Part shown: piece by piece, positions 12,779 through 49,865 of the stretch
Layout of the letters: each line of letters starts with the position of its first letter
Numbering within the stretch: position 1 is the first letter of the stretch
Origin: a virus
Length of the DNA: 64,000 bases
Strand: one strand, 5' to 3'
UHGV virus genome: UHGV-0168042
The notes under the pieces: generated by a model
What the model was told of the DNA's origin: nothing
What the model saw: the letters and a program-made list of their open reading frames with translations, nothing else
Databases searched by the model: none
Made by a program: the position numbers and the translations under genes

Positions 12779-12912
12779 GGTTAAGCCCTAAATTCGGGCG
12801 CGGCGTGAAGGTTCTTTTGACGGGCTAACAATACCTACTTTGTGATTTAGTCAATAGGTTTAGTAAAATAAAATATATTAACACGCATGTTGTTATGTGA
12901 TTTAATTTTAGT

Positions 12913-12926
12913 TTTCTAACACAAAT
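12913..12926. promoter_or_regulatory. TTTTCTAACACAAA operator-like motif, 10 bp upstream of the 12937 start
   Basis: Member of the dispersed TGTTAGAAA / TTTCTAACA family (see findings). Confidence 0.4.
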
Positions 12927-12936
12927 CATTAGAGTT

Positions 12937-13329: not shown

Positions 13330-13345
13330 GTAAACAAGGGACAAA

Positions 13346-35001: not shown

Positions 35002-35580
35002 CTAATTTATTAATTCAATCGCCATCTGATACAACGCCATTTCATCGGCATTGTGCCGTATGAAATCTGCTTTTCCGCCTATTTTTCCATCAGCATGAAC
35101 AGGGACCAGCCAGGGATATTGTTCTCGGACCTCGGCTGGCGCTGCGTACTGGTGGTGCCATTTACACAAAGGGAGGACATATTTATGTGCGTTCTCTGCC
35201 GTTCTCCCGAAGATATGGTGCAGGGATACCACTGGGCTATGTTGCCCGTGAATATGGCAGGCAATGCAGGGGAGAGTACCGATAGCGGTCTGTATCCGGC
35301 GTTCATCGGCTGTGAGTGATCTGCCCTTCAGGCCGCGTGACGTGCGTGTTTTTTTGGGCGGAGCGGATACAGCTTTATCTTTTCTCCGCTGTTCATATTG
35401 CTTTGCTTTTTCAATTTTCTTTTGCCGATATTCAGGCGATGCGGCTTTTTCTCTCGCTCGCTGCTGCTGGCGTTGAGCTTGTTGAAGGCGCTTTGCCCTT
35501 TGTTCCTCTCGCCAGGCTGGGTCAGCCAATTTTTGCATGGCTTTTTGTCTCTGTTTCTCCCAATAGCTCTGTTTCTGCAT
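35002..35580 (-). CDS. ref: Ref-like HNH endonuclease (recombination enhancement function)
   Basis: HNH core LPCIACHIHG...VSLHHIFGRTA...LPLCKWHHQYAAPAEVREQYPWLVPVHADG matches P1 Ref as recalled; basic N-terminal region. Confidence 0.75.
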   Translation of the reverse strand: MQKQSYWEKQRQKAMQKLADPAWREEQRAKRLQQAQRQQQRAREKAASPEYRQKKIEKAKQYEQRRKDKAVSAPPKKTRTSRGLKGRSLTADERRIQTAIGTLPCIACHIHGQHSPVVSLHHIFGRTAENAHKYVLPLCKWHHQYAAPAEVREQYPWLVPVHADGKIGGKADFIRHNADEMALYQMAIELIN

Positions 35581-35619
35581 GATGGCTGCCTCTTACTTTT
35601 CAGCTATTTTTCTATGATT

Positions 35620-35663
35620 GATCAAAACAGTTAGATATTCAAAATTGATTTTCTAACACAAAA
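35620..35663. promoter_or_regulatory. Operator-like palindrome (GTTAGATATTC ... TTTTCTAACACAAAA) upstream of ref and of the divergent 35698 operon
   Basis: Motif family member in the divergent intergenic region. Confidence 0.4.
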
Positions 35664-35697
35664 CATTAATATCATTCCTGATAACTGTTTGGAGGAC

Positions 35698-35853
35698 ATG
35701 ATGCTTATAGCTTTAAGTGCGATCCACCAGCCATCTGTGAATGAGATTGGCCTGTTCTATGTGTTGTTTTTCGGGGCGTTGGCGCTACTTGAACTTGGTA
35801 TTGAGCTTTTCGCAGTGCTTATGTTTTGCGTCACGATTTTGGGGAAATTTTGA
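35698..35853 (+). CDS. Small membrane peptide (51 aa)
   Basis: GGAGGA RBS, ATG at 35698; hydrophobic sequence; stop overlaps next start (TGATG). Confidence 0.4.
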   Translation: MMLIALSAIHQPSVNEIGLFYVLFFGALALLELGIELFAVLMFCVTILGKF

Positions 35854-36476
35854 TGGTGAAACGTGTTTTGAAAATTTACATCGCGGGGCCGATGACTGGT
35901 TATCCAGATTACAACCGTGCTGCGTTTAATGCGAAAGCGAGCGAGCTGATGTCTGAAGGGCATATCGTTCTGAATCCAGCTGTGTTACCTGGTGGCCTTT
36001 GCCAGAGTGAATACATGGATATTTGCCTGGCAATGGTGCGTTCTGCTGATGCGATCTATCTGCTCAATCAATGGGAAGAATCGGTTGGTGCTCGCGCAGA
36101 GCACGCGCTGGCTGAAAAGCTGGGGCTGACTGTAATTTATGAGTCACAAACCAACATTGAATGCCAGGTTGCTCCGCATATTTACCGTGAACTGGTAAAT
36201 GCGTTACGTGATGTTGCTATTGAATGTCACGGCACGGATCAGCTTCGCGCCCGCTTAAGCAAAACCCTTTCCAGTTACCTGTCTTTGGCTGAAGGATACA
36301 ACCTCCGGCAGCGGAGAATGGTCAAATTAATCACGCGTTTATCTCAATCCCTGGCAAATGCCGAACCAACTAATCCGCTACCTAATGACGCAATGAATTA
36401 TCTGAAGTCATGCGGCGTTGTTTCTGAAGATGCAGTTCGTTTTGTGGAGTTTATGTCTCAGAGGATGTCAGCGTGA
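35853..36476 (+). CDS. Nucleoside 2-deoxyribosyltransferase-like protein
   Basis: N-terminal KIYIAGPMTGYPDYNRAAF pattern; start refined to ATG 35853 (track lists 35826). Confidence 0.45.
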   Translation: MVKRVLKIYIAGPMTGYPDYNRAAFNAKASELMSEGHIVLNPAVLPGGLCQSEYMDICLAMVRSADAIYLLNQWEESVGARAEHALAEKLGLTVIYESQTNIECQVAPHIYRELVNALRDVAIECHGTDQLRARLSKTLSSYLSLAEGYNLRQRRMVKLITRLSQSLANAEPTNPLPNDAMNYLKSCGVVSEDAVRFVEFMSQRMSA

Positions 36477-36790
36477 GCTGGCGGGGATGGGGAAGGGCGG
36501 AAATCATGATACTCCGCCAGTGCGCCGGGACTATGACAGTCGTGAGTATTGGGAGGCTGATCGGGCGTACCGGTAGTGCTGTCAGAACCAAAGCGCGGCA
36601 GCTGCGGATCTGCATGATTCTGAAAGGAGACTTTCACCCGTCAGCCAAATACCGGCAGGGCGATATAGAACTGGCACGGCAGCTTCATCGGTGTGGTGTT
36701 CCCCGCCGTGAGATCGCAGAAAAACTCGAAATGCCCTTGAGCATGATTAATCAGTACGTTTATTTCGAAAGGAGAGTACATGAAGTCTGA
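36473..36790 (+). CDS. Putative HTH DNA-binding protein (105 aa)
   Basis: HTH-like segment GVPRREIAEKLEMPLSMINQYV. Confidence 0.4.
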   Translation: MSWRGWGRAEIMILRQCAGTMTVVSIGRLIGRTGSAVRTKARQLRICMILKGDFHPSAKYRQGDIELARQLHRCGVPRREIAEKLEMPLSMINQYVYFERRVHEV

Positions 36791-37268
36791 AGGTTTAACG
36801 CCAGCACAACTGGCAGAGCGTAACGCTGAGTATGTAACGGAAATTTCCCGACTTGAGAAAGAACGCTCGGCGCTGGCGGCGGAGAATGCTGGGCTGAAAC
36901 ATGCAATGGCTGTAACTCTTGAGCATGTGTCGGTCACGGATGCAGGGCAGGCCGGAGTTGCTGCAATGATTATCAACGATGCCCTGCACCACAGCGAAAC
37001 TCCAGCCACCGATGCTTTTCTGGCTGAAATTCGTGCGGAGGCTCGCAACGAGGGGATTAACTATACCGCAAGCCGTCTTGCTGCTGCTTTCAACCACGGA
37101 TTTATCAATAAGTCTTTACGTGAAGTTTTCGACGTTACACGCATGATTCTGTCAGCGAAAGAAGAGTTGGCTAATGAACCGCACCCGATTGATGGCCTGT
37201 CCGGTGAATATGCGGAGAAATCCCTTGAAGAATGGGCGGAACAGATTCGCAAAGGAGCTGACAAGTGA
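36780..37268 (+). CDS. Ea22-like family protein, paralog A
   Basis: Coiled coil RLEKERSALAAENAGLK and C-terminal PATDAFLAEIRAEAR...AEQIRKGADK shared with the other paralogs. Confidence 0.55.
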   Translation: MKSEGLTPAQLAERNAEYVTEISRLEKERSALAAENAGLKHAMAVTLEHVSVTDAGQAGVAAMIINDALHHSETPATDAFLAEIRAEARNEGINYTASRLAAAFNHGFINKSLREVFDVTRMILSAKEELANEPHPIDGLSGEYAEKSLEEWAEQIRKGADK

Positions 37269-37675
37269 AGAAGATGATTTTTGTCGCGGCATTGTTGGTG
37301 AATATCCAACAAGTGCATGCTTCAGCAGCTATTGTAGCCTCTACCGCCGCGACTACGGCTGCTGTAGCTGCTGCGAACTCTGCGAATATCGCAAACCAAC
37401 AGGCACAGCGTGCTGCTAATGCATCAGCCAGCGTTCACTCAATCACCATTAAGAGCAGTAAGCAAAATCTGGGATTCATAACGTGCGGCACGCGTTCTAA
37501 TGAAGCTGTAGGTTCACTTGGATGTACGGTATATGGGGGTAGTGAGAATAGAGAAATTCCATGGAAAACGTGGCCCGGATACGTTCTTGGCTCGAAGCTC
37601 CCGGCCAGTTATGAAGTAAACGCCGTATCGTTTGATCACTATAACGGCGTGGCAACGGTCTATTTTGCATATTGA
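37265..37675 (+). CDS. Secreted protein with signal peptide (136 aa)
   Basis: MKKMIFVAALLVNIQQVHA signal peptide. Confidence 0.45.
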   Translation: MKKMIFVAALLVNIQQVHASAAIVASTAATTAAVAAANSANIANQQAQRAANASASVHSITIKSSKQNLGFITCGTRSNEAVGSLGCTVYGGSENREIPWKTWPGYVLGSKLPASYEVNAVSFDHYNGVATVYFAY

Positions 37676-38484
37676 GGCTCCGCATGAAATTCTCCAAATT
37701 TTCTGAGTTGGTGAATCGTATTTTGTTGAATCGTATTTTGTCCAACAACCACAGCCATCGTCGCGATATGGATGTAACGATCGTTGTTCATTCGCCTGGC
37801 AGCATTGGTTCAACACCCTCAGTTGAGGTTCAGTCAATTCACGCTGGTTTTGATTGGGATTCCGGGAAAGTGCTGATTTTCCCAGCACAGCCACTGACCA
37901 CGCTAACACCAGAACAGATTACTGATATTACTGATAGTGTGCGCAAAGGTCAGTCCTGGCACGCATATCAGGAATACAAGAAGCATCAAGAGCAGTTGGA
38001 AAAATTATCGATTGAACTTGATACCGCAAAACAGCGCATTGCAGAGCTGGAGGGTAATCGCGCGGCGCTGGCTGCGGAGAATGCGAGACTGAAGGCGATA
38101 TGTGAGGATCGCCGCACGTTCATTATGAATGGCGTGCAGCTTGGTTTTATCAAGGTGCCAACAGTGGAAATAGATCCAGCTCTTGAAACAATTCGTATCG
38201 CCCTATCACCACAAAAAACCACTCCTGCGACCGACACTTTCCTGGATGAAGTGAAGACTGAAGCACGCAAGGAGGGCGCTTACTTTGTGGCGAATAGAAT
38301 GCTGGCTGCCTGGGAAGCTGGTTTTATTGATGATACTGCGAAGAACGCCGCGGATATTGCCCGGATGATTCTTACCTCTACTGAGTTTATGGCTAATGCG
38401 CGGGAAGGCGATTTTGACCGCTCATTCTCTGATGGTGTTCTCGAAGATATCGCTGAACAGCTTCGCAAAGGAGGCAGCCAGTGA
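37672..38484 (+). CDS. Ea22-like family protein, paralog B
   Basis: RIAELEGNRAALAAENARLK ... PATDTFLDEVKTEARKEG ... AEQLRKGGSQ. Confidence 0.55.
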   Translation: MRLRMKFSKFSELVNRILLNRILSNNHSHRRDMDVTIVVHSPGSIGSTPSVEVQSIHAGFDWDSGKVLIFPAQPLTTLTPEQITDITDSVRKGQSWHAYQEYKKHQEQLEKLSIELDTAKQRIAELEGNRAALAAENARLKAICEDRRTFIMNGVQLGFIKVPTVEIDPALETIRIALSPQKTTPATDTFLDEVKTEARKEGAYFVANRMLAAWEAGFIDDTAKNAADIARMILTSTEFMANAREGDFDRSFSDGVLEDIAEQLRKGGSQ

Positions 38485-39122
38485 GCGAGCTTTACTATCA
38501 GACGTTACGTGAACGTTTTTCACCGAAACCAGCGCCTAAATGCTCTGTTTGTGGCGAGGAAATGTCAATGCAGCGCATATCTGGATCACATGTTGTTTAT
38601 GCCTGTTCCGGCATGGAGGACGACGGATGCTTCAAAACTGGACGAACTTATGCTGACGAGCATTACAAAAAATCGCGCATAACAGTAGTTGATGATAGCG
38701 ATCCTGATGTGATTGAACTGCTGGAAGAGAACATGGAGATGGCTCTAACGCTTGAGAAGCTGCGTGTTGAGCTGGAGGCTGCTAAACAGCGTATTGCCGA
38801 ATATGAAAGCAATTGCGGGGCGATGGTGGCGGAATGCCAAAGCAAAAAAGCAGCTCTTGAGGCAATTCTTAGCCATTGCCCAATTAATCATCCAGATATA
38901 GACATCGCATGTATAGCGAACATCGCTCATAACGAATTAGGCGGGGCGAAAAGCACTACATCTAAGGCATACCTTGTAGAAATACAGGCACAAGGGGTGG
39001 AGGCATTCGCTTTGACGATGCGCGATACCGGAGATGATCCATTTTTTGATTCCGTTGCTTCTGCTTGCGCGGATGCAGCTGATAGGTTCGCTGCCCAGCT
39101 TCGAAAAGGAGGCAAACAGTGA
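38481..39122 (+). CDS. Ea22-like family protein, paralog C, with N-terminal Cys-rich zinc-ribbon-like motif
   Basis: CSVCGEE...YACSG...DDGCF; RIAEYESN coiled coil; C-terminal AAQLRKGGKQ. Confidence 0.5.
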   Translation: MSELYYQTLRERFSPKPAPKCSVCGEEMSMQRISGSHVVYACSGMEDDGCFKTGRTYADEHYKKSRITVVDDSDPDVIELLEENMEMALTLEKLRVELEAAKQRIAEYESNCGAMVAECQSKKAALEAILSHCPINHPDIDIACIANIAHNELGGAKSTTSKAYLVEIQAQGVEAFALTMRDTGDDPFFDSVASACADAADRFAAQLRKGGKQ

Positions 39123-39367
39123 GTAATACCGCACGACTACAGCTTGGTTTTTTACCGCTATCAAAAACCATCGTGTTGGCAAAAATGCGTGACTTAGGGG
39201 ATGGAACAAAACGTCGTGTCGGCAATGATCGCGGTCGTGATGTAACCAACGAGGCCGCACAACTCGTTTGGCATCTAGTCATGGCTGAAGGCGGTGAAAT
39301 TAATTGGGAGCTGGATGATGGTTCTCGCATGGTATTAAAGGCAGAAAAGCAGGAGCCACCACAGTGA
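39119..39367 (+). CDS. Hypothetical small protein (82 aa)
   Basis: 4-nt overlap chain of small early-region-type genes. Confidence 0.4.
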   Translation: MSNTARLQLGFLPLSKTIVLAKMRDLGDGTKRRVGNDRGRDVTNEAAQLVWHLVMAEGGEINWELDDGSRMVLKAEKQEPPQ

Positions 39368-39657
39368 ATATCGACACCACGATAACGATTGATACGGCCC
39401 TAAATACCGGTCTGGCACTTCTCGGTTGGCTTTACATCATGTCCAGTACATGGCGATGGCTGGGTTCCATTTTCCTGAAACAGTGGAAAAAACGGCGCAA
39501 ACAGGAATTACGCCAGAAGGCATTAGAAGCGTTCTATGACGCATTTGAACTTAGCCGCATTGAACCAGGCACAACAGCCAGGATAGCGACAAAAGGCGAC
39601 CTGATGATAGTGATGTTCCGACAGGAGAAAGCAAATGGCAGCAAAGCGAATGACTAA
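39364..39657 (+). CDS. Hypothetical small membrane protein (97 aa)
   Basis: Hydrophobic segment LNTGLALLGWLYIM. Confidence 0.4.
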   Translation: MNIDTTITIDTALNTGLALLGWLYIMSSTWRWLGSIFLKQWKKRRKQELRQKALEAFYDAFELSRIEPGTTARIATKGDLMIVMFRQEKANGSKAND

Positions 39658-39859
39658 TCGCGAACTTGTTGATGCCGCGATTGAACTTGCTGGCGATTTT
39701 TATTCCATGATGGGGTACACGCATCGCCCAGGCTTCAAATATTGGGAGTCTCCGCACCCGCAAGAGCAACGGGTATTTCAAATGGCCTGTCGCGCTTTTG
39801 AAGTTATTCGCGGTTCTGATGTGATGGACGCGGTTGCTGATTTGGAGGATGAAGAGTGA
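39635..39859 (+). CDS. Hypothetical small protein (74 aa)
   Basis: Complete ORF in coupled chain. Confidence 0.4.
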   Translation: MAAKRMTNRELVDAAIELAGDFYSMMGYTHRPGFKYWESPHPQEQRVFQMACRAFEVIRGSDVMDAVADLEDEE

Positions 39860-40167
39860 ACACAATTAAAGAAATGCCGGTAGAACGTGATGAATATGGC
39901 TGCTGGACACATCCGGAGTATGAAAAGTTTTGCGCAGGTCGTGAATATATATCCACTGAGGAATTTGACGCCTGGATGAAGGAAAATAATCTTCAGTGGA
40001 CTATTCGCAGTATGGATGAAGATGATTTTGATCTGGACGCAGCTGGTCCCGATATTGCCGCCTGGGAACCGGAGCGACCAGAGGGTGAAGGCTGGTTTGT
40101 TGGCTCTATTCATGACACTGAAGATGGTCCAGTTTGTATCTGGCTGCGGGAGAAGGTTGCCGCATGA
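39856..40167 (+). CDS. Hypothetical small protein (103 aa)
   Basis: Complete ORF; stop overlaps phosphatase start (ATGA). Confidence 0.4.
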
Positions 40168-40856
40168 TCCAGACTATGCATGAAGTGAATTTATATAGCC
40201 GTATTGATGGTTCTGGCTACAGAAACATATGGGTTGTTGGTGATCTGCATGGTTGCTACACCAGACTGATGTCCGAACTCCATCGTGTGGATTTTGACCC
40301 GGCGCAGGATTTACTGATATCGGTTGGCGACCTTATCGATCGCGGTACTGAAAATGTCGAATGTCTGGAACTATTGCAGATGCCCTGGTTCAGGGCAGTA
40401 ATGGGGAACCATGAGCGGTTGATGCTTGATGCGTTAAGTCCTGATGGCAACGTGAATAACTGGCTAATGAATGGCGGACAATGGTTCTTCATGCTGGGCA
40501 CTGATCAGGAAATATTAGCCAAGGCGCTGGTGGAGCTGGTAAAGCGTCTGCCATATATCATTGAGTTGAACACCGGGCATGAAACTATCGTTATAGCCCA
40601 TGCCGACTATCCAGGTGGAGAGTACCAGTTCGGTAAGGATGTGTCGTTTTTTGATGTTGTCTGGTCGCGCAGTCGCGTCGGTGATTCGATAGATGGCATT
40701 GGTGGAGAAATCACAGGCGCAGATCGCTTTATCTTTGGGCACACACCGGTACGAAGACCAAAAGCATACTGGAATCAGCACTACATAGACACGGGCGCGG
40801 TTTTTTGCGGAAATCTGACGCTAATGCAGGTGAAGGGAGGGCAGCTTAAAGTCTGA
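40164..40856 (+). CDS. Ser/Thr protein phosphatase (lambda PPase-like metallophosphoesterase)
   Basis: Metallophosphatase motifs GDLHGC, GDLIDRG, GNHE and collinear similarity to lambda PPase ([15 protein letters not shown]...[15 protein letters not shown]). Confidence 0.85.
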
Positions 40857-40880
40857 TCAAATCATTTACGCACTCAAAAT

Positions 40881-40916
40881 CACGTTAGAACATTGATTTT
40901 AGTTTTCTAACATATT
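40881..40916. promoter_or_regulatory. Operator-like palindrome CGTTAGAACATTGATTTTAGTTTTCTAACA upstream of the 40955 operon
   Basis: Motif family member. Confidence 0.4.
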
Positions 40917-40954
40917 ATTTTACCGATCGGAACAAAACAGAGTCGGTATGCATT

Positions 40955-41950
40955 ATGAGTGCAATAATCACCCCATATGTCGTAAATGAAACTGGTGTGG
41001 CTGTCTTTCCTGTAGATAAGCCCACCAGCAATTACATCGGCGCAGGACGCCGTTTTCTTATATCCCCATTGCCGCGTGAACAGGCTGAAAACACCCCTGA
41101 TGGTGTCGTTGACCTGAATTATTCACTGGTTGCCAACCAGTCACTGGCACCCTTTTTTCAAAGTGAGCGTGTATTTAACGCGTTAGGTGGTGAGGATTCT
41201 CTCGTTCACTGGGTTAGCACCAACATTCACGATTGCCAGGCGCATGATAAGCGCGATTGCAGCCACCAGCTAACCACCCATTTCTATAACGGTTCTGCCG
41301 TTCGCCTGTGCTGGAAGCATGATGCGGAATACATGATGAAGGGATACGGCAAGCTGGAAGACCAACTGTCACGGAATCGCGCCAACTGGATTATGAACTG
41401 GGCTGCCAGCGAGTTAAAACTTCCGCCAGATCGCGATCTGAGCATGGTTGAACTCACCTTTTGGGCCATTCGCCGGAATCTTAAAGACGAACTGCCTGAT
41501 GAAGCTGGTCGCATTGCATTTTGTCAGCCAAAAACTGAAATCCCTACCGGTACGCTGAAAGAATCAGATATCACCTGGGAGCACAGTACCCGCGAGCTGG
41601 TGGACATAACCGCAGAGCAGATCGTCAACCTGTCTGTAGATGAGGATTCCGGCCTGCTTTATATGCGCCGACCAAAAGCGGTCCTCGGTAAAAGCCCGGC
41701 TTATCTCCGGTTTGTGGTTTCTCGTCCGTGCATCGGATGCGGTGGCAAAGTTAACCACCCGTTCATGTACCGCGCCCGCTCGTTAAACGAACACGACCGC
41801 TGGGCTGTTCCTCTTTGCGATGACTGCGCCAGAAGCGCAGAAAACGATGTTCGGGCATGGGAAAAAGCACATGGCATACGCCTTTACGTAGCCGCTAACC
41901 AGCTTTTTGACTTCGCCATCGAGCGCGGAGTGATCACGTTCAATAACTGA
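40955..41950 (+). CDS. Phage protein with C-terminal Cys-rich motif (DUF968-like)
   Basis: CIGCGGKVNHPF...VPLCDDCARSAEN; family assignment from recall, low certainty. Confidence 0.4.
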   Translation: MSAIITPYVVNETGVAVFPVDKPTSNYIGAGRRFLISPLPREQAENTPDGVVDLNYSLVANQSLAPFFQSERVFNALGGEDSLVHWVSTNIHDCQAHDKRDCSHQLTTHFYNGSAVRLCWKHDAEYMMKGYGKLEDQLSRNRANWIMNWAASELKLPPDRDLSMVELTFWAIRRNLKDELPDEAGRIAFCQPKTEIPTGTLKESDITWEHSTRELVDITAEQIVNLSVDEDSGLLYMRRPKAVLGKSPAYLRFVVSRPCIGCGGKVNHPFMYRARSLNEHDRWAVPLCDDCARSAENDVRAWEKAHGIRLYVAANQLFDFAIERGVITFNN

Positions 41951-41954
41951 TGAG

Positions 41955-42647
41955 GTGGATCAAAAAATGAAAGAACGCGGGATGATTTTTAACGATGAGA
42001 TGGTCAGGGCCATCCTCGAAGGAAGGAAGACGCAGACTCGCCGACCTGTAAAAAATGTCAGGGCCGATAACTGCCTAGTTATCCGTAAACCGACAAAGAA
42101 ACGCAATGGTGTCTATACCCACGTTATGGATGCACCTGAACATGGTTTATGCCCGTTCGGTAACGTTGGTGATCGCATATGGGTCCGTGAGGCGTGGGCG
42201 ATATTAGGCAATGAGGATGGTTGCAGTGTGGACTGGAACGACAACCTTTGTCGTGGCGATGAGAAGAACGCAGCAAGGATTTATCGGGCCAGTTGTGAGC
42301 AAAAGCCTGGTGATTACGGTTTGTGGTCGATACCCGATGATGCCGACTGGAAACCTCACACTGTGAATGAAAAGTTTGATGGCGGGTGGCGTCCATCAAT
42401 TCACATGCCGCGCTGGGCTTCGCGTATTTTGCTGGAAATTACCGACGTGCGTGTGGAACGGCTGCGTGATATGAGCGAGGCAGATGCTAAAGCAGAAGGC
42501 GCATCTCCGGCGATGTACAAAATTACGCCGCCGGAAGCTGTTTATCGCGTTGGTTTTGGTGACATCTGGCGCAGTATTTACGGGCAGGATAACTGGCTAT
42601 CTAACCCGTGGGTATGGGTAATCGAGTTTAAGCGCGTTCAGGAATAA
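41955..42647 (+). CDS. Hypothetical protein (230 aa), ASCH/PUA-like N-terminus possible
   Basis: MIFNDEMVRAILEGRKTQTRRP pattern common in prophage genes. Confidence 0.4.
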   Translation: MDQKMKERGMIFNDEMVRAILEGRKTQTRRPVKNVRADNCLVIRKPTKKRNGVYTHVMDAPEHGLCPFGNVGDRIWVREAWAILGNEDGCSVDWNDNLCRGDEKNAARIYRASCEQKPGDYGLWSIPDDADWKPHTVNEKFDGGWRPSIHMPRWASRILLEITDVRVERLRDMSEADAKAEGASPAMYKITPPEAVYRVGFGDIWRSIYGQDNWLSNPWVWVIEFKRVQE

Positions 42648-42650
42648 ACC

Positions 42651-43529
42651 GTGAGTATGCATCAAGTTGTCAGCTTTTCAGGTGGACGAACATCGGCTTA
42701 TCTCGTTCATCTGATGGAAGCACAGCGAAAAGCTGGCGCTAGCGTCCATTTCATTTTTATGGATACCGGCTGTGAACATCCTCTGACGTATCGCTTTATT
42801 CGTGAGGTTGTGAAGTTCTGGAATGTACCGCTAACGGTGTTGCAGGTCGATATAAATCCAGAACTTGGGCAGCCAAATGGTTATACGGAATGGGAACCAA
42901 AGGATATTCAGACGCGAATGCCGGTGCTTAAACCGTTTATGGACATGGTTAAAAAGTACGGTACGCCATACATCGGCGGCGCGTTCTGTACTGACAGGCT
43001 AAAACTAACCCCTTTCACGAAATATTGCGATGACCATTTTGGGCGAGGGAATTACATCACATGGCTGGGTATTCGTGCGGACGAACCCCGTAGGCTGAAA
43101 CCGAAACCGGGCGTCCGGTATCTTGCCGAGCTGTCAGATTTTGATAAGTCGGATGTTATCCGGTGGTGGCGAAAACAACCTTTTGATTTGCAAATCCCGG
43201 AGCACCTCGGGAACTGTGTTTTTTGCATCAAAAAGTCAACGCAAAAGCTGGGGCTTGCATGTAAAGACGAACCAGGTCTGATGCGGGTTTTTAATGAACT
43301 GGTTACAGGCAAACACGTCAGGGATGGTCATCGCAGAACAGATAAAGACGTTATGTACCGTGGTCACCTGACGCTTGACGGGATTGCCAGAATGTATGCC
43401 GACAGCGACTACAGAAATTTGTATCAGGCGATGGTGCAGGCCAAGCGGTTTGATACTGGTTCGTGTTCCGAATCATGTGAAATCTGGGGTGACCAATTGG
43501 AGTTGAAATTCGAAGAGGTAGTGGCATGA
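42651..43529 (+). CDS. PAPS reductase-family (PP-loop ATP pyrophosphatase) protein
   Basis: PP-loop SFSGGRTS near N-terminus, C-terminal Cys cluster. Confidence 0.7.
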   Translation: MSMHQVVSFSGGRTSAYLVHLMEAQRKAGASVHFIFMDTGCEHPLTYRFIREVVKFWNVPLTVLQVDINPELGQPNGYTEWEPKDIQTRMPVLKPFMDMVKKYGTPYIGGAFCTDRLKLTPFTKYCDDHFGRGNYITWLGIRADEPRRLKPKPGVRYLAELSDFDKSDVIRWWRKQPFDLQIPEHLGNCVFCIKKSTQKLGLACKDEPGLMRVFNELVTGKHVRDGHRRTDKDVMYRGHLTLDGIARMYADSDYRNLYQAMVQAKRFDTGSCSESCEIWGDQLELKFEEVVA

Positions 43530-44035
43530 CAAACAAAATTGACTATCAAAAGCTTCGTGAAATTGCTGAAAAAACAAAAATTGCTGGTGAAGCGCCTGTA
43601 ATGCCTTTCGATCAGCGAATTAATGCGCTTAACGATTTTATGAAGCACTTTTCGCCAGATATCGCGTTGGCATTATTGGATGAAGTTAAACGCCTGGAGG
43701 ACACAAATATTGATGCTATGTGTCGAATTGCAGAGCTTGAGACTAATCTCGCGGCGCTGGCAGCGGAGAATGAGCTGGCTCGTAAGGCAGTTCAGGCATT
43801 CTGCGATGTTGTTGGCGACAACACCGAGGTTATCGCTGAGGTGGTTGGGCGAGATGGCGTTCTGGTTATTTTGGAGGCCATGAAGGCAACAGGAAATATG
43901 CCAGCCACCGATGCTTTCCTGGCTGAAGTACGGGCGCAGGGCGTGGAGATGTTTGCGGAGTGTGCATACACGCTTGAACATCATGATCACGCAGTAGCCT
44001 TCGCCGCTGAGCTTCGCAAAGGAGGCAACCAGTGA
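43526..44035 (+). CDS. Ea22-like family protein, paralog D
   Basis: IDYQKLREIAEK N-terminus, RIAELETNLAALAAENELARK, PATDAFLAEVRAQGV...AAELRKGGNQ. Confidence 0.55.
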   Translation: MTNKIDYQKLREIAEKTKIAGEAPVMPFDQRINALNDFMKHFSPDIALALLDEVKRLEDTNIDAMCRIAELETNLAALAAENELARKAVQAFCDVVGDNTEVIAEVVGRDGVLVILEAMKATGNMPATDAFLAEVRAQGVEMFAECAYTLEHHDHAVAFAAELRKGGNQ

Positions 44036-44727
44036 GCAAGATTGACTATCAAGAACTGCGCGAGGCGGCGGAGAAGGCTACGAAAGGTAAGTGGGCTGTT
44101 GAATTCGACGATGAGATTTACTCCACTGACGGCATAAACCATGAGCAAATAGCTATGGTGTTCAGTGAAAACGAATCTCGTGATGCTGAATTCATCGCCG
44201 CAGCCAATCCGGCTACCGTCTTGGCGCTGCTGGATGAACGGGAAAGAAACCAGCAATACATCAAACGCCGCGACCAGGAGAACGAGGATATTGCGCTAAC
44301 GGTAGGGAAACTGCGTGTTGAGCTGGAAGGCAAAGACAGCAAAATAGCCAATCTTACCGCCGAACGCGATGCTCTTCGTGAAGGTGAGATGGGCGACGCT
44401 AGGCATAGCAACACACGGGCCGCAGCTGATATCTACTTCCAACTGGTCGAGGAGTGCGAAATTCCTGCTGGCGGATCTCTGGTCGAGTACGTTGACGATA
44501 TGCGCGAGAAGCTGGAAGCCGCAGAGAAGCGCATTGCAGAGTTAGAAAGTGGTTCTCAGGCACAAAAGTTAGTTGAAGCAATCATTGTTGCGATAGAAAA
44601 CGAACAGGAAAGGCTTTTTGATGAAGATTACCTAATGGATTCGAAAGAATGCATTGACGTAATTCGTGAAGAAGTAAAGCGATGGAATGATTCCCGCGCC
44701 GCTGGCATTCGCATCAAAGGAGAGTGA
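44032..44727 (+). CDS. Ea22-like family protein, paralog E (divergent C-terminus)
   Basis: IDYQELREAAEKATKGKW N-terminus, coiled coil RIAELES. Confidence 0.5.
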   Translation: MSKIDYQELREAAEKATKGKWAVEFDDEIYSTDGINHEQIAMVFSENESRDAEFIAAANPATVLALLDERERNQQYIKRRDQENEDIALTVGKLRVELEGKDSKIANLTAERDALREGEMGDARHSNTRAAADIYFQLVEECEIPAGGSLVEYVDDMREKLEAAEKRIAELESGSQAQKLVEAIIVAIENEQERLFDEDYLMDSKECIDVIREEVKRWNDSRAAGIRIKGE

Positions 44728-44728
44728 T

Positions 44729-44992
44729 ATGGCAACTTTGACAAAAAAAGAACAAGCATGGTTGAGCGAATTACAGGACGTTCTTGATCGCTGCCCATCA
44801 CCGAAAAAAATTGGTTTTTACACCATTGGCGATAAAAGCATTTACCTGTATGACCTGCGCCGCATGGATGAAATCATGGAGGCTCTTGATAATCGTTCGT
44901 CAATGGATTGGTGTGTTGCTGTTCATGATATGAATGCCGGATTTGATGAAAAGATTTTATTCCCCTCATCAGTTGAAAGCACTGCGGGTTAA
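44729..44992 (+). CDS. Hypothetical protein (about 87 aa from ATG 44729)
   Basis: Track ORF 44687-44992; internal start MATLTKKEQ follows preceding stop. Confidence 0.4.
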   Translation: MATLTKKEQAWLSELQDVLDRCPSPKKIGFYTIGDKSIYLYDLRRMDEIMEALDNRSSMDWCVAVHDMNAGFDEKILFPSSVESTAG

Positions 44993-45002
44993 GGAGTAAC
45001 AC

Positions 45003-46193
45003 ATGACCACTATTACCAAAGAACGTATTGAATTGTTCATTAAAAATCCGCTTGAAAACGGGCTTACCCGTGGTGAACAAATGGAACTGGCACGGATTGC
45101 GCTGGCATCGCTGGAAGCAGATCCAGTTAAACGAGTTAACTCAGATCAGATGCGCCGAGTCTGCTTAGAAGCTAATCGCCATTTAGATAAATATGACGCG
45201 ATGGCGAAAGAGGTAAATAAGTTGCTTGGCCGCATCGCCCCGCCAGCGCCGGTAGTGCCGGAAGAAATCAGTACGACCCACACAATGCTGCCCGCCATGA
45301 GTGATCAGTTGATGGCGTTCGGTTATGTGAAGGGGTGGAATGCCTGCCGCGCGGCTATGCTTCATGCCGGAAACTTTCGGAAAAACGCGAATTCGTCAAC
45401 CAATAATTTTCGGGATATTGCGGAAACGTCAACCAACTCTCCGGTAATTCCTGGTGAGGTGTTGTCCGCAATCCTGAAGTTTGCCAGAGTTCGTGCTGAT
45501 TTCGATGATTTTGACGGCGACAGACGAGGTATCGGTGATTGTCTGGATGAGGCTGAGCAAGAGCTTATCGTTACCATTAACAAATATGCCAGCCAGTTGG
45601 CAGCAGAACCGATAGCGACTAATGACGTTCGAGAGCAGCAGACAGCCGTTCCACCAATACAGGCTGATGTCGCACAAGCAATTGAAAATCTCAAGCAGAA
45701 GTTAGTGGAATGCAATCGCTATAACTACTGCGCAGATGCAGTTAAAGGCGTAGAGGATGCCTGCCGTGCTGTTAGCTATAGCCAAGCCGACAATCAACCA
45801 GCATCTGGCAACCAGGCTGCCGAATCCAATCGCGGTAATGAGTGGACCGGCAATCCTGATATTGATAACGCCATCATCATGCTCGACCGCATAGATACGC
45901 TGGAAAATTGCGATGATGACCGTATTGAGGCTGTTAAGGCTGTTTTGCGCAGACTGGCTGTCAACTCTCCGGTAACTCCGGATGGCTGGATAAGCTGTAG
46001 TGAGCGAATGCCGGATACCAAAACAGCCGTTCTTGTTGCCGTGGAGTTTGACAGGAAAGGTGACTGGCGAATGAAATGGGCGACTTACATCCCTGGTCAT
46101 CCTGACGCTAATGATGGGTGGATAATTCCTGGTGCGTCGTGGAAACCGTCACACTGGATGCAGCTACCAGAACCGCCACAGGAGGCGAAATGA
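45003..46193 (+). CDS. Hypothetical protein with DUF551-like C-terminal domain (396 aa)
   Basis: C-terminal GWISCSERMPDTKTAVLVA...WKPSHWMQLPEPP pattern typical of DUF551 prophage proteins. Confidence 0.5.
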   Translation: MTTITKERIELFIKNPLENGLTRGEQMELARIALASLEADPVKRVNSDQMRRVCLEANRHLDKYDAMAKEVNKLLGRIAPPAPVVPEEISTTHTMLPAMSDQLMAFGYVKGWNACRAAMLHAGNFRKNANSSTNNFRDIAETSTNSPVIPGEVLSAILKFARVRADFDDFDGDRRGIGDCLDEAEQELIVTINKYASQLAAEPIATNDVREQQTAVPPIQADVAQAIENLKQKLVECNRYNYCADAVKGVEDACRAVSYSQADNQPASGNQAAESNRGNEWTGNPDIDNAIIMLDRIDTLENCDDDRIEAVKAVLRRLAVNSPVTPDGWISCSERMPDTKTAVLVAVEFDRKGDWRMKWATYIPGHPDANDGWIIPGASWKPSHWMQLPEPPQEAK

Positions 46194-46450
46194 TGGATGT
46201 AAAAGAGAAGGTTTTGCAGGTGATGCGTTCCCGTGCTGCCCTACAAGAGAAAGCTCTCGGCGGTGAATATCCATTCACGATAGCAACCTGGAATCTGCGG
46301 TTGGCAATGGAGAAGGAATTTCCTGATGAAGAATGGCGTTCGGCAGATTTGCGCAAAATTCTTATGGAGCTGGCTAAAGACGGAACAGTATCCAAAGATA
46401 CCCATGCCAGCCGGATTGGTCAGGCGGTATGGAGACTGGAGGTGAGGTAA
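46190..46450 (+). CDS. Hypothetical protein (about 86 aa)
   Basis: Track ORF 46118-46450; start refined to MMDVKEK overlapping preceding stop. Confidence 0.4.
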   Translation: MMDVKEKVLQVMRSRAALQEKALGGEYPFTIATWNLRLAMEKEFPDEEWRSADLRKILMELAKDGTVSKDTHASRIGQAVWRLEVR

Positions 46451-46731
46451 TGGCTAACCTGCAACTTGCCGTTAAAGGTGAATACTTCGATGCCATGATT
46501 CGAGGGGAGAAAACGGAAGAGTATCGCCTGTGTAATGACTACTGGAATAAGCGCCTCGTTAACCGTAAGTATGACCGCCTGATTATCACAAAGGGATATC
46601 CGAAGCGCGAAGACTTCAGTCGCAGAATTGACGTCCCGTATAACGGATATGAAATAAAAACAATCACACATCCGCACTTCGGTGATAAACCGGTAAAGGT
46701 GTTCGCGATAAAAGTGAAGATTAATAGCTAA
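46450..46731 (+). CDS. Hypothetical protein (about 93 aa)
   Basis: Track ORF 46429-46731; start refined to MANLQLAVKG after a GAGG RBS. Confidence 0.4.
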   Translation: MANLQLAVKGEYFDAMIRGEKTEEYRLCNDYWNKRLVNRKYDRLIITKGYPKREDFSRRIDVPYNGYEIKTITHPHFGDKPVKVFAIKVKINS

Positions 46732-46754
46732 ATTTCAATTAACACGGAGTAATT

Positions 46755-47048
46755 ATGTGGCGCGGTAATAATCATGGCGGAAGCCAGATGATACTTACCG
46801 AATATACTTTCGACCACAAAACCAATAAATCACGTTCAGTATATTTGCTTCGGCACAATAGCCGCGTAAGAAATACCGTGCTGGAGCAAAATCTGACCGT
46901 CGAAATGGATAATTTAGGAAGCTTCAAGCCAACAATATCGCTTGATGATTTTCCGTGTGGTTTAAGCGAAAGAGAAGCAATGCTGAAATTAGCAGAATGG
47001 TTACAAAGATTAAGCATTGCTATTGAAGATAACTGGATTCAACCATAA
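46755..47048 (+). CDS. Hypothetical protein (97 aa)
   Basis: Complete ORF. Confidence 0.4.
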   Translation: MWRGNNHGGSQMILTEYTFDHKTNKSRSVYLLRHNSRVRNTVLEQNLTVEMDNLGSFKPTISLDDFPCGLSEREAMLKLAEWLQRLSIAIEDNWIQP

Positions 47049-47072
47049 TGAAAAACAGAAAGAAAGATTGCT

Positions 47073-47282
47073 ATGGCAACATTTAGTAAATTCGCAGTAA
47101 TTATTATTTTATTAATTCCCCTCACTGTTACAGCAGGGGAACAGCAACATTGCACAAAAGAGAATGAACACCCTTTCATCGTTATTCAATGCGATGACGG
47201 AACGGTGACTGTGGTTAATGTAAGAAATGACCGTGTAGCTGTTTGCCGTAAAGGCGAACCATGCAAGGAAATAAAACTATGA
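47073..47282 (+). CDS. Small secreted Cys-containing protein (69 aa)
   Basis: Signal peptide FAVIIILLIPLTVTAG, four Cys in mature part. Confidence 0.4.
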   Translation: MATFSKFAVIIILLIPLTVTAGEQQHCTKENEHPFIVIQCDDGTVTVVNVRNDRVAVCRKGEPCKEIKL

Positions 47283-48028
47283 CAAGAATCACTAAAGAGC
47301 GTATTTCAGATATTATTTCCCGTATCGAAATGTATGGTCACGGTGCTGGATACACAGCAGATGAAGTATTGGAGCTTGCCAAAATAGCTTTAGCGCCTTG
47401 CAAGGATGGTAAAGCTATGACACTGATTGACTTGTTAGTGAAGGAATTATCTAAGGGGCGTGGATGGCCTGATGGAAAAGATTTTTGCCATCTATCCATT
47501 ACGATGCCAGGTAGTAGTCGCGCTACGGTTCTTTTTGGTACGCGCCATAAAAATTACCAATCATCAAAGAATTATTCCATTGATGGCATTATTTGCGATA
47601 TCAGTGACCTTGATCGCAGTGCGTTTACATCGGTTGTCACTCGTGAACAGTATGAAGCAGCTCGCATAGCGTCTCAGAAAGTCAAGTCTGAAAGTAAGGC
47701 TTACAAGTTAGATTTTGAGCAATGGCTGGAGCAGCAACGCGGGGAAATCGATGTGGACTGCGGTTGTGTGTCTGCGGAAACATTCATGCACTGGTTGCGG
47801 GTAGCTTATGAGGCTGGGAACCATCCGGTTCTTCCGGATAGTTCCCAACAAGCGCCCAGGAAAAGCGTAAAAACCACTCTGGAAAGAGGCTATCTTGAGG
47901 CCGCATTAAAGATTAAGCCGGGCCATACGCTAGGCGTCATTGATGCCATGTTGGTTCATGAAATGGCTAAGGCTTTATTGCCGCTGGTGGCTGATAAACA
48001 TGAGGCGGGCCATGCCAACGAAAGCTGA
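47261..48028 (+). CDS. Hypothetical protein (255 aa)
   Basis: Complete ORF. Confidence 0.45.
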   Translation: MQGNKTMTRITKERISDIISRIEMYGHGAGYTADEVLELAKIALAPCKDGKAMTLIDLLVKELSKGRGWPDGKDFCHLSITMPGSSRATVLFGTRHKNYQSSKNYSIDGIICDISDLDRSAFTSVVTREQYEAARIASQKVKSESKAYKLDFEQWLEQQRGEIDVDCGCVSAETFMHWLRVAYEAGNHPVLPDSSQQAPRKSVKTTLERGYLEAALKIKPGHTLGVIDAMLVHEMAKALLPLVADKHEAGHANES

Positions 48029-48296
48029 GTTACAGGCTCGCGTAGAGATTCTTGAAAAAGAAAATGCGAGTCTAAAAGGAATGCTGGCGCGGGCGGAAAG
48101 GGAATTATCAGGCAAATTATTGCCAGAAGAGCTGCCACCAGCAGATATACCTGATCGAGTGTCCTGGTGGATGAAGTATTTCCGTGCACCGTGGGAGGCG
48201 TTTTGGTGCTACGACCATCGCAGATGGTGTGATGAGCTTGATAGCAGTTTCCCCTATTTTGCGGAAGGGAACTCTTGCCCTGAATGTAGGAGTTAA
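48012..48296 (+). CDS. Hypothetical protein with coiled coil and C-terminal Cys-rich motif (about 94 aa)
   Basis: Track ORF 47940-48296; likely start MPTKAELQARVEILEKENASLK; C-terminal CYDHRRWC...CPEC. Confidence 0.35.
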   Translation: MPTKAELQARVEILEKENASLKGMLARAERELSGKLLPEELPPADIPDRVSWWMKYFRAPWEAFWCYDHRRWCDELDSSFPYFAEGNSCPECRS

Positions 48297-48528
48297 TGAT
48301 GACCGGCGAGCTTTATTTTAAAATGTTTCTCGTTAGGAGTGCAGTCAAAATTTTTGGGCAATACAGGATCGAGAGGAATGCGATTAGGCATAGCCAATTC
48401 CTTATTAACTGATTGGCAACGAGGTTGCGCTGATCCGTTGGTGATGAATAGTAGCAAAGCGCACAAAATCATCTGCGGTGGTTGATGTACATAACGCGTT
48501 TGCACCAAAGGTGTCTCTTTAATGTATA

Positions 48529-48544
48529 CTGTATAAATGAACAG
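48529..48544. promoter_or_regulatory. LexA (SOS) box CTGTATAAATGAACAG upstream of humD
   Basis: Exact CTGT-N8-ACAG with AT-rich spacer, about 22 bp upstream of the humD start. Confidence 0.75.
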
Positions 48545-48565
48545 TATTGTTGAGGTGAAAACGCT

Positions 48566-48955
48566 ATGGGCTTCCCTTCTCCTGCGGCGGATTATGTTGA
48601 AAGCAGAATTTCTCTTGATCAGCAACTAATCAGGCATCCATCAGCGACATACTTCATGCGGGCGGCAGACAGCCATCACCGTGAGGGAATATTGCAGGGT
48701 GCTTTGCTGGTGGTTGATTCTTCGCTTACTCCAGTTGATGGTTCGCTGCTTGTGTGCGCTATGGAGGGTGAATATCGCATAAAGAGATACAGGAAGTATC
48801 CGCGCCAGCACCTGGAGGATTTAAGCACCGGGAAGAAAGAGGCGTTACCAGTAGATGACGATGGATGCACGGGAAGTAATGCTGTTTTTGGTGTGATCAC
48901 TCATGTCATCAATGATGCCCGAAGTGGGGAGTTTGATGATTGTCCGGTTATTTAA
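48566..48955 (+). CDS. humD: UmuD'-like S24 peptidase-domain protein (HumD-like)
   Basis: Collinear with the UmuD C-terminal domain (GFPSPAADYVE...HPSATYF...GDIVIA/SLLVCAMEGE...VFGVITHVI); lacks the N-terminal cleavable part, as P1 HumD. Confidence 0.8.
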   Translation: MGFPSPAADYVESRISLDQQLIRHPSATYFMRAADSHHREGILQGALLVVDSSLTPVDGSLLVCAMEGEYRIKRYRKYPRQHLEDLSTGKKEALPVDDDGCTGSNAVFGVITHVINDARSGEFDDCPVI

Positions 48956-49027
48956 GCTGCAAAGTGCTGGTGCTTTATGCCTGTGAGGTTTATAATTGTG
49001 TACACATAATGAGTACACGAGGTGTTT

Positions 49028-49249
49028 ATGCAATCCATTAACTTCCGTACCGCGCGCGGCAACTTTTCTGAAGTGCTCAACAATGTTGAAGCCGGGGAAG
49101 AGGTTGAAATCACCCGCAGAGGCCGTGAGCCAGCAGTAATTGTCAGCAAGGCTACTTTCGAAGCCTACAAAAAAGCGGCGCTGGATGCTGAATTTGCATC
49201 CCTGTTTGACACCCTGGACTCCACCAACAAGGAACTGGTTAACCGATAA
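49028..49249 (+). CDS. phd: Phd antitoxin
   Basis: [73 protein letters not shown] matches P1 Phd as recalled. Confidence 0.9.
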
Positions 49250-49629
49250 TGAGGCATATATCACCGGAAGAACTTATTGCGCTTCATGATGCGAATATAA
49301 ACCGCTACGGCGGCCTGCCGGGAATGTCTGATCCGGGTAGGGCAGAGGCCATTATCGGGAGAGTTCAGGCCAGAGTTGCCTACGAAGAGATCACCGACCT
49401 TTTCGAAGTCTCCGCCACCTACCTGGTGGCTACAGCGAGAGGGCATATATTCAATGATGCCAATAAGCGTACCGCGCTAAACAGTGCGCTGCTATTTCTA
49501 CGCCGTAACGGGGTGCAGGTATTTGATTCACCTGAACTGGCAGACCTTACCGTAGGGACTGCGACTGGCGAGATATCTGTATCTACTGTCGCCGCCACGT
49601 TACGTAGATTGTATGGTTCTGCGGAGTAG
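49249..49629 (+). CDS. doc: Doc toxin (Fic-fold kinase)
   Basis: 126 aa with [15 protein letters not shown] Fic-like motif; start overlaps phd stop. Confidence 0.9.
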
Positions 49630-49831
49630 ATTAATGGCACGCAAATGCAACAAATTGTCCCATAAAGCGTTAAAGATGCTTCTTGATGGCGTGAGTCGCC
49701 GCGAGGTAAAGCAATACCTGGTTGGTAAGCAAATTGGTGCCAGGACCGCTATTGCTGTGTTATGCCGTCAGGAAATGGTTGTGCTTAAACAGAGAATGCT
49801 TGGTAGCAGACAAAGTGCTTCCAGTATTTGA
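49613..49831 (+). CDS. Hypothetical small basic protein (72 aa)
   Basis: ORF downstream of doc overlapping its end; may be spurious. Confidence 0.3.
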
Positions 49832-49832
49832 A

Positions 49833-49865
49833 AAGAAGCCCGCCATACCAAGCGGGCTTTTTGTT
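49833..49865. terminator. Bidirectional hairpin terminator between convergent operons
   Basis: aagcccgccataccaagcgggctt followed by T run. Confidence 0.6.

Follow-up and report, generated by a model that had tools for sequence, protein, structure and literature searches.

Candidate recombination joints and ribosome-binding-site tails in a mosaic array of Ead/Ea22- and EaE-type genes on a D6-like phage-plasmid

The stretch of viral DNA analysed here (UHGV virus genome UHGV-0168042, 64,000 nucleotides, hereafter the window) carries five short genes, designated A to E, which had been predicted from the sequence to be an expanded family of Ea22-like paralogs in two translationally coupled clusters. 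By its sequence, the element is a D6-like, P1-related phage-plasmid (plasmid prophage) of Escherichia coli and Salmonella. The five open reading frames (ORFs) were confirmed on the + strand, at 36780-37268 (A), 37672-38484 (B), 38481-39122 (C), 43526-44035 (D) and 44032-44727 (E). The start of B at TTG 37672 is less likely than ATG 37684, which has a GAGG Shine-Dalgarno sequence 6 nt upstream and agrees with a RefSeq homologue of 266 aa (99.6% identity); B is therefore most likely to span 37684-38484. A tblastn search of the whole window with the five proteins returned no sixth copy.

The five products are built from a recurrent set of parts. A (162 aa) has a short unique N-terminus, a coiled coil with ALAAENA, a middle segment, a PATDAFLAEIRAE box, a long all-helical EaE-type C domain and the tail IRKGADK before the stop codon. 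B (266 aa) begins with a beta-rich N module (phrog_6026), followed by a coiled coil with AKQRIAELEGNRAALAAENA, a middle segment, a PATDTFLDEVK box, a long EaE-type C domain and the tail LRKGGSQ. In C (213 aa), an Ead_Ea22 N module with a Cys4 motif precedes a coiled coil, a degenerate PATD box, a short C-terminus and the tail LRKGGKQ. D (169 aa) combines a short Ead_Ea22 N module (IDYQKLREIAEK ... ALALLDE), a RIAELETNLAALAAENE box, a middle segment, a PATDAFLAEVRAQ box, a short two-helix C-terminus and the tail LRKGGNQ, and E (231 aa) has a canonical Ea22-type N domain and first coiled coil, a C-terminal part of its own and the tail AGIRIKGE.

Membership of the Ea22-like family, claimed for all five genes, was borne out for three of them. 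With the Pfam model PF13935 (Ead_Ea22, gathering cutoff 27 bits), C, D and E scored 49.5, 30.0 and 101.9 bits, respectively, E over the whole profile. No match to PF13935 was obtained for A and B even at E ≤ 0.1, and these two are of the P22 EaE type instead. All five proteins matched PHROG 368 (A 3.9e-41, B 1.1e-60, C 8.3e-53, D 4.3e-41, E 1.5e-43), although the parts of the profile covered by A (110-238) and E (1-124) barely overlap, and A and B are joined to the Ead_Ea22 family only via this profile and the shared boxes described below. Both also matched phrog_614 (A 1.5e-57, B 3.1e-43), and A aligned with P22 eaE (34.5% identity, E 4e-16, 86% query coverage) and, at 69-73%, with 'Eae-like' homologues of Stx phages and phiV10. 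These comparisons assign the all-helical C-terminal domain of ~100 aa in A and B to the family of P22 EaE ('Eae-like' in epsilon15, phiV10 and Rac-type prophages; PHROGs 614, 14548 and 492), from which A and B differ in their N-terminal halves. The domain lies outside every Pfam model. An exhaustive search with A residues 41-162 among 1.8 billion proteins gave only 283 representatives at 50% identity, indicating that the EaE-type family is narrow. Of this domain, C and D retain just the first-helix box and the tail.

Close relatives of all five are already public. C is 90% identical to D6 orf92, and E shares with lambda Ea22 (NP_040612; PF13935) its N domain, first coiled coil and AGIRIKGE tail, with 52% identity over residues 1-105 (E 2e-27), including an identical stretch of 34 aa (LLDERERNQQYIKRRDQENEDIALTVGKLRVELE). 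More than 8000 relatives of E were found; those in E. coli prophages include matches over the full length at 78-99% identity. The five exact proteins occur in 11 to 421 contigs each (A 126, C 421, D 55) as 'ead/Ea22-like family protein', 'Eae protein' or hypothetical (A under the latter two names, C as ead/Ea22-like), and consecutive accession numbers in several assemblies reproduce the gene order of the window.

The motifs on which the prediction had been based were found in the translations. The N-terminal box occurs as KIDYQKLREIAEK in D and KIDYQELREAAEK in E, and in degenerate form in C (ELYYQTLRER). The coiled-coil box reads RIAELEGNRAALAAENARLK in B, RIAELETNLAALAAENELAR in D and EISRLEKERSALAAENAGLK in A; it is degenerate in C, and E has AEKRIAELE only. 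The C-terminal box and tail are PATDAFLAEIR...QIRKGADK in A, PATDTFLDEVK...QLRKGGSQ in B and PATDAFLAEVR...ELRKGGNQ in D, while C combines a degenerate first box (SKAYLVEIQ) with an intact tail (QLRKGGKQ). Composition-corrected pairwise BLASTP gave E-values of 1e-21 for A-B (36.6% over 153 aa), 6e-8 for B-C, 3e-5 for C-D, 4e-5 for D-E, 3e-4 for A-D and 6e-4 for C-E. The comparison of B with E was marginal (E = 0.047) and that of A with E was not significant (E = 0.64), so that the 'family' is a chain of shared modules rather than one architecture copied five times.

The shared boxes are also detectable in the DNA, as direct repeats of 40-51 nt. The coiled-coil or ALAAENA box (repeat families D2, D4 and D5, + strand) lies at 36840-36898 in A, 38035-38094 in B, 43724-43783 in D, 38781-38838 in C (degenerate) and 44521-44547 in E (first half only). 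The PATDAFLAE box (repeat family D3, + strand) lies at 37002-37041 in A, 38224-38263 in B, 43901-43940 in D and 38961-39011 in C (degenerate), and an ALALLDE box on the same strand, at the joint between N head and coiled coil, is shared by D (43664-43684) and E (44218-44238). Codon identity in the coiled-coil box is 11/14 between B and D and 8/9 between A and D, and reaches 28/34 in the tails, compared with 4/11 in the N box IDYQxLREAAEK. Since the N box is kept in protein but not in DNA, DNA-level conservation is no automatic by-product of protein conservation.

In other elements, the same boxes are the points at which one module gives way to another. The protein search with A gave 4349 relatives, in which near-identical sequence (98-100%) from ALAAENAGLKHAMAV to the end of A is joined to at least six unrelated N-termini, with or without an Ead_Ea22 domain. 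The matched stretches fall into two classes, covering either query residues 1-48 only or ~30-121 only, with representative matches breaking at residues 29-33 and 48; the breaks thus flank the PATDAFLAEIRAE box. Match boundaries cluster at A residues 30, 73 and 86-88. More directly, chimeras of the window genes were found among five closely related plasmids and phages (90-98% DNA identity to the window genes). D6 orf91 follows A (95.4% DNA identity, 36780-37041) and then D (89.6%, 43901-44035), the two matches overlapping by the 40 nt of the PATD box. L004_2281 changes from A (94%) to B (97.9%) with an overlap that is the ALAAENA box. Switches at both of these boxes occur in L002_2269, where a D middle segment (91%) is set between A sequences, and in L004_3775, which passes from the N-terminal half of B through a third middle segment to the C head of A (95%). 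In L003_8338, L004_8356 and D6 orf100, DNA like D (96-99%) continues into DNA like E (91-97%) with the overlap exactly at the ALALLDE box; L003_8338 (D 98.7%, E 91%) switches at this ALLDE box and then continues into the C-terminal domain of lambda Ea22 with its HRYYGVGG loop. That sister elements switch between window paralogs exactly at the boxes argues for remodelling of the array by homologous recombination at these sites. L003 also lacks gene C and has a B-type gene that ends in the tail of C, an arrangement that, from the sequences, would amount to cassette gain or loss via tail-to-tail exchange.

The same pattern was seen in a larger sample of 153 distinct family genes from 85 other loci, in which stretches of DNA at least 85% identical to the window genes were mapped. 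The ALAAENA box was present in ~50% of the genes, the PATD box in 40-55% and the tail in 55-66%, compared with 0-10% for most module bodies; the exception is the middle segment of D (~30%), the loci having been chosen for similarity to D. Allelic copies of the same module gave dN/dS of 0.00-0.27, which indicates that the modules encode functional protein under purifying selection, and the sequences point to diversification by recombination rather than by accelerated substitution. The box profile and the chimeras support the predicted picture of a diversifying family with conserved joints and variable modules. They do not support its derivation by paralog expansion within the element: each module has 90-100% identical copies in other elements, where its closest relative is found, and the window's own copies are only 28-37% identical to one another. 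Tandem duplication followed by divergence was rejected on the chimeras and this low mutual identity.

The fourth joint is the tail. Its junction box (CAGCTTCGCAAAGGAGGCAnCCAGTGA, repeat family D1, + strand) occurs at 37234-37284 (A to the gene at 37265), 38450-38500 (B to C), 39088-39138 (C to the gene at 39119) and 44001-44051 (D to E), and comprises the last codons QLRKGGxQ, a Shine-Dalgarno sequence AAAGGAGG and the GTG start of the next gene, which overlaps the TGA stop. E has instead a lambda-type 'KGE' tail, GGCATTCGCATCAAAGGAGAGTGA (AGIRIKGE; 44695-44731, + strand), the end of which (ATCAAAGGAGAGTGA) encodes IRIKGE and the stop codon, followed by T and by ATG 44729 of the next gene (MATLTKKEQ...). 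Junctions were compared across 86 loci (113 distinct junctions). The RKGGxQ-type tails were accompanied by an overlapping start and a Shine-Dalgarno sequence in 56 of 58 distinct junctions, before 22 different downstream N-termini, and the IRIKGE-type tails by a start at -1/+1 and a Shine-Dalgarno sequence in 28 of 29, before 18 different downstream genes (84/87 for both types together). The tail is also independent of the preceding C head, being found after long EaE heads, short types, the lambda C-terminal domain and a P-loop-like head. Whichever gene comes next, the tail places AAAGGAG(G) at a suitable distance from its start codon, which overlaps or directly adjoins the stop, and we infer that the tail is kept because it provides the downstream gene with its ribosome-binding site and with a signal for translational coupling. 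As a 30-nt box, it probably also serves as a cassette boundary for the gain and loss of whole genes.

The terminal K/RGE ('+GE') motif of Ea22 proteins has been described as being of unknown significance (PMC7093339). Within the array it is present in E alone (IRIKGE), A to D ending in RKGADK or RKGGxQ, and the simplest explanation suggested by the junctions is that the published motif, too, is accounted for by a ribosome-binding-site and coupling tail. On the coupled clusters, the original description needs correction: an unrelated gene (37265-37675) lies between A and B, and the 4-nt start/stop overlaps are not special to the five genes, occurring at other junctions of the co-directional block as well (for example 39119/39367-39364 and 42651/43529-43526).

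The genes occupy two slots in the element. Window positions 1-25000 are 97.2% identical to phage D6 across 93% of their length, and the 3' part is 98.2% identical, whereas D6 covers only 46% of 36000-46500. This places the five genes in the most variable part of an element that is otherwise conserved. The best of the D6-like plasmids (92-94 kb, non-mobilizable, E. coli/Salmonella) cover 64-73% of this interval. Slot 1 (A, B and C) is bordered by DUF4406 and DNA-binding genes on one side and by the phosphatase gene ppp on the other; slot 2 (D and E) is bordered by pdcB/DUF968 and, here, a PAPS-reductase-like gene on one side and by DUF551/pmgU on the other. The wider flanks are formed by the genes on the ref side and by homologues of pmgU, hot, humD and phd-doc, and the neighbours are typical accessory genes (PAPS-reductase-like, DUF551, ASCH, phosphatase). 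D6 (orf91, orf92 and orf100) and the D6-like plasmids (pF374-2, pAPEC201603 and others) have the same two slots and flanks (DUF4406 and a DNA-binding protein, ppp, pdcB/DUF968, the pmgU side), with a different combination of family genes in each element examined. D6 has three members, two of them chimeric: orf91 combines A and D, and orf100 combines D and E and adds a P-loop-like C-terminal domain; pF374-2 has five, with B and C identical to those of the window.

The slots lie in a co-directional block that extends from ~35.7 kb to a strong terminator at 49833-49862, the sole strong one on the + strand of 35400-50500, where matches to a sigma-70-like promoter are depleted (7 versus 20.3 ± 4.4 expected). 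No match to the P1 C1 operator was found anywhere in the window, using what we take to be its consensus with up to three mismatches. Chi sites (GCTGGTGG) numbered 41 in the 64 kb, compared with 1.65 expected (100 shuffles, maximum 6); P1 is a Chi-rich phage. Two Chi-free stretches, 35732-40525 (4.8 kb) and 41604-47982 (6.4 kb), correspond to the lambdoid-like accessory cassettes with the five genes, which would fit a foreign origin, but a further Chi gap of 5.3 kb is present at 8361-13675. Chi was dropped as a driver of the joints: true Chi sites, very frequent in the window, are absent from the five genes, and the ALAAENA box only resembles Chi, with 1-2 mismatches.

A gene for a Ref-family recombination-enhancement nuclease (P1 ref homologue; 35002-35580, - strand) lies at the head of the operon, divergent from it and ~1.2 kb upstream of A, with a DUF4406 gene and the gene at 36473 in between. 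P1 Ref stimulates RecA-dependent recombination at short homologies.

For copy number, family ORFs within ~10 kb were counted in the window itself, in five loci from plasmids or phages and in 80 IMG/VR loci that encode a relative of D; some of the contigs are truncated. One copy was found in 14 of the 86 loci, two in 42, three in 22, four in 6 and five in 2, the last being the window and pF374-2. Expansion is thus no special trait of this element, multiple copies being the norm (at least two in 72 of 86 loci) and five the upper end; in this sample, biased to D-like loci, adjacent and coupled family genes are the rule.

The three-part architecture with a central coiled coil is supported by heptad patterns and by helices in the AlphaFold2 models of A and E. 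The model of A (60-sequence alignment, pLDDT 84) is all-helical, with a long stalk helix at residues 8-52 (pLDDT 85-95) that contains ALAAENA, a less confident helix at 55-71, and a helical bundle at 75-159, the first helix of which (75-105) begins precisely with the PATD box; confidence is low for the final residues. For E (28-sequence alignment), pLDDT was 56 overall and 79-89 in a helix at residues 60-122. In A, B and D, the Asn of AAENA occupies a heptad 'a' position and is flanked by Leu at 'd'. Polar layers of this kind set the register and the choice of partner in well-studied coiled coils. The boxes would thus also mark structural boundaries, PATD starting the first helix of the C head and ALAAENA placing its Asn at a core 'a' position. 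Acidity is common to the five proteins and to their C-terminal parts (pI 4.4-5.5), in agreement with the published lambda and Stx phage proteins.

Taken together, these observations are explained best, and with good probability, by mosaic Ead/Ea22-EaE early accessory proteins of lambdoid phages, housed in two variable cassettes, with recombination at the boxes and a tail that carries a ribosome-binding site. Each gene is a chimera of exchangeable modules: an N head, a coiled-coil stalk, a middle segment and a C head. Short boxes (ALLDE, ALAAENA, PATDAFLAE and the tail), conserved in DNA across the gene pool, join the modules, and on the evidence of the sister elements the array was built and remodelled by homologous recombination at these boxes, from slot to slot as well as by exchange with the pool of prophage genes. 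Recombination at short boundary sequences is an established concept (PMC3029335). The window resembles it in that DNA-conserved boxes of 17-50 nt flank polymorphic modules, chimeras switch inside the boxes and the tail box lies exactly at gene boundaries; it differs in that most joints are intragenic, at domain boundaries, so that the protein domain and not only the gene is shuffled. The primary sources of the concept are reportedly Susskind & Botstein 1978 and Clark et al. 2001 on HK620.

Among the closest known systems is Ea22 of lambda and Stx phages (variants V1/V2/V3; Goddard et al. 2024, PMC10834534; Dydecka et al. 2020, PMC7093339), which likewise has an N part, a coiled coil and a variable acidic C part, and is mosaic, with several variants in one genome. 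The ea22 genes occur in up to three variants per enterohaemorrhagic E. coli (EHEC) genome (PMC10834534), the Ea22 proteins of lambda and P27 are tetramers, and the C-terminal domains are acidic and dimeric (PMC10834534, PMC7093339). The window differs in having five copies instead of one to three, and in its location on a non-integrating P1/D6-like plasmid prophage instead of the exo-xis region of the lambdoid pL operon. The solved C-terminal domain of lambda Ea22 (a beta-beta-alpha-beta-beta-alpha dimer with the HRYYGVGG loop) is present in none of the five genes and is found in sister L003_8338.

The statement that the Ea22 family has no established function is partly outdated: a pro-lysogenic phenotype and the solved C-terminal domain have been reported for lambda/Stx Ea22 (PMC7093339, PMC10834534). 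The phenotype, tested genetically for the Ea22 proteins of lambda and phi24B only, is an increase of lytic development upon deletion (PMC7093339, PMC10834534). The literature searched on Ea22-like proteins, PF13935 and D6 contained nothing on what these genes do in phage-plasmids. By analogy with the lambda and Stx proteins, the five genes may modulate quiescent versus lytic development: as acidic, oligomeric coiled-coil stalks, their products could present variable heads to host or phage partners and might tilt the element towards a quiescent (lysogenic or plasmid) state and host survival.

Several points weigh against the mosaic reading. Lambda ea22 has the ATCAAAGGAGAGTGA tail but is followed by no start codon (GATCGG, not GATG), and ea8.5 begins 191 nt downstream; this junction region (L086, NC_001416, 29847-29655) looks, from its sequence, like what is left of a coupling to a gene since lost, but it is also the chief caveat to the reading of the tail. 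Needs of the protein, such as coiled-coil register or the start of a helix, could be the main reason why the boxes are conserved, with recombination merely exploiting them, and cause and consequence are not separable here. The 80 viral loci were picked for similarity to D, which biases both the copy numbers and the box frequencies. As the element does not integrate, a 'pro-lysogenic' role may not transfer to it. Finally, no partner, fold homologue or defence-related signature was found by sequence, structure and PADLOC searches, nor any sequence or structural relative with a known activity: a PDB sequence search with B and E gave nothing below E = 0.2, NCBIfam gave no meaningful match, and PADLOC-DB 2.0 had no match for A, B, D and E and only weak coiled-coil matches for C (E 0.014-0.02).

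Among the alternatives, the view of the original prediction fares best, although we consider it rather unlikely: a local family of diversifying paralogs, in which the conserved ends form an interface for a common partner and the variable middles confer specificity. It draws support from the N box, nearly invariant in Ea22-type proteins ahead of hypervariable inserts and kept in protein rather than DNA, which fits a constraint at the protein level; the Asn of ALAAENA could set a common oligomerisation register, and the modules are under purifying selection. The (Q/E)(L/I)RKGG-Q tail, assigned to this interface, is explained better by the Shine-Dalgarno sequence and overlapping GTGA start, present in nearly all junctions and before unrelated genes, and the residues concerned are those modelled with low confidence in A. 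The lack of significant similarity between A and E, and the contrast between 28-37% identity within the window and 90-100% for module copies elsewhere, also speak against a local family, and yeast two-hybrid screens found no partner for lambda Ea22 (PMC10834534, PMC7093339).

Three further proposals are each improbable. In the first, the paralogs co-assemble: A, B and D, with the same coiled-coil core (L-AAEN-A-L) and encoded in one coupled operon, would form mixed oligomers acting as a combinatorial adaptor. The common box with Asn at 'a', the adjacency and coupling of family genes in most loci and the tetramers of lambda and P27 Ea22 are in line with this, but the box versions of C and E are divergent, 14 of 86 loci have a single copy, and cassette insertion at tail junctions explains the adjacency equally well. 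In the second, which we also doubt strongly, the proteins are an arsenal for anti-defence or inter-phage competition, whose variable acidic heads inhibit different host immune proteins or rival phages, module turnover being the consequence. The acidic proteins, the high polymorphism of the modules, the typical accessory neighbours and the position in the most variable segment of an element otherwise 97-98% conserved would suit such a role; on the other side, there is no PADLOC match, no structural similarity to known inhibitors and no support in the literature searched on Ea22-like proteins, PF13935, Ead_Ea22 and IPR025153, and dN/dS of 0.00-0.27 within modules shows no sign of a point-substitution arms race. 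The third, to which we attach equally little weight, is a combinatorial diversity generator, in which the joints reshuffle heads and stalks, perhaps aided by Ref and the Chi-rich backbone, and the copies co-assemble through the Asn-containing coiled-coil core into mixed oligomers that recognise several host or rival-phage targets. The remaining possibility, that the shared motifs are a low-complexity or coiled-coil coincidence between unrelated genes, had been named as what would overturn the prediction and can be regarded as refuted: the A-E and B-E comparisons and the position of some of the similarity in an alanine-/glutamate-rich coiled coil would favour it, but composition-corrected E-values down to 1e-21, a single PHROG profile on all five proteins (E ≤ 4e-41 to one figure), DNA repeats of 40-51 nt and the chimeras in sister plasmids indicate homologous motifs.

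If the mosaic reading is correct, the striking 'paralog array' comes from the usual mosaic pool of Ea22/EaE genes in lambdoid prophages, brought into two hot spots of a P1/D6-like element, and it documents gene flow between integrating prophages and phage-plasmids. The family, the three-part architecture, the mosaicism, the multiple variants per genome and the exact sequences were already known. New here are the EaE-type assignment of A and B, the DNA-level map of joints with exchange between the slots and with the prophage pool, the explanation of the tail and a DUF551 head shared by a sixth gene (below). No new kind of system is revealed and the result is mainly clarifying. It offers a simple explanation for the conserved K/RGE and RKGGxQ tails, which would encode the ribosome-binding site of the gene that follows and the signal for its coupling, and the mapped domain joints should help to express single heads or to build chimeras in the search for Ea22 partners.

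Further variation was seen in the heads. In E residues ~18-50 (~44083-44181), many unrelated inserts occur between the N box (…AEKATxGxW) and NAxFIAAxNPxxVLALLDE among E-type proteins that are otherwise 84-99% identical, and this segment appears to be a further hypervariable cassette within the N head. A Walker-A-like motif (VVVSGFTGCGKSAIAGE) is present in the C heads encoded at L004 8356-9081, L005 8252-8731 and L001 11089-11736 (D6 orf100), so that nucleotide binding may be a property of at least one type of head. The N-terminal ~83 aa of C (38481-38730), a Cys4 module with CSVCGEE...ACSG...DGC, also exists as a stand-alone protein of 107 aa annotated 'ClpX C4-type zinc finger protein' and is 37% identical to Gordonia phage proteins; these matches point to an independent, widely travelled domain.

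The gene between A and B (37265-37675, + strand) encodes 136 aa with a signal-peptide-like N-terminus (MKKMIFVAALLVNIQQVHA...) and an Ala/Asn/Gln-rich stretch; it matches phrog_8805 (7e-86) and has no Pfam match. In other loci, genes of this type always follow the variant tail IRKGADK or IRKGGDK.

Downstream of E and outside the five genes, a DUF551 protein of 396 aa is encoded at 45003-46193 (+ strand; Pfam DUF551 1e-20). The presence of DUF551 on Ea22 V2 has been described (Goddard et al. 2024, PMC10834534). The C-terminal head of the window protein (residues 321-392) is 97% identical over 72 aa to the C-terminal end of an Ea22-type ORF in another locus (L020), and by this match the gene belongs to the module-exchange network of the Ea22 proteins, although it has none of the boxes of the five.

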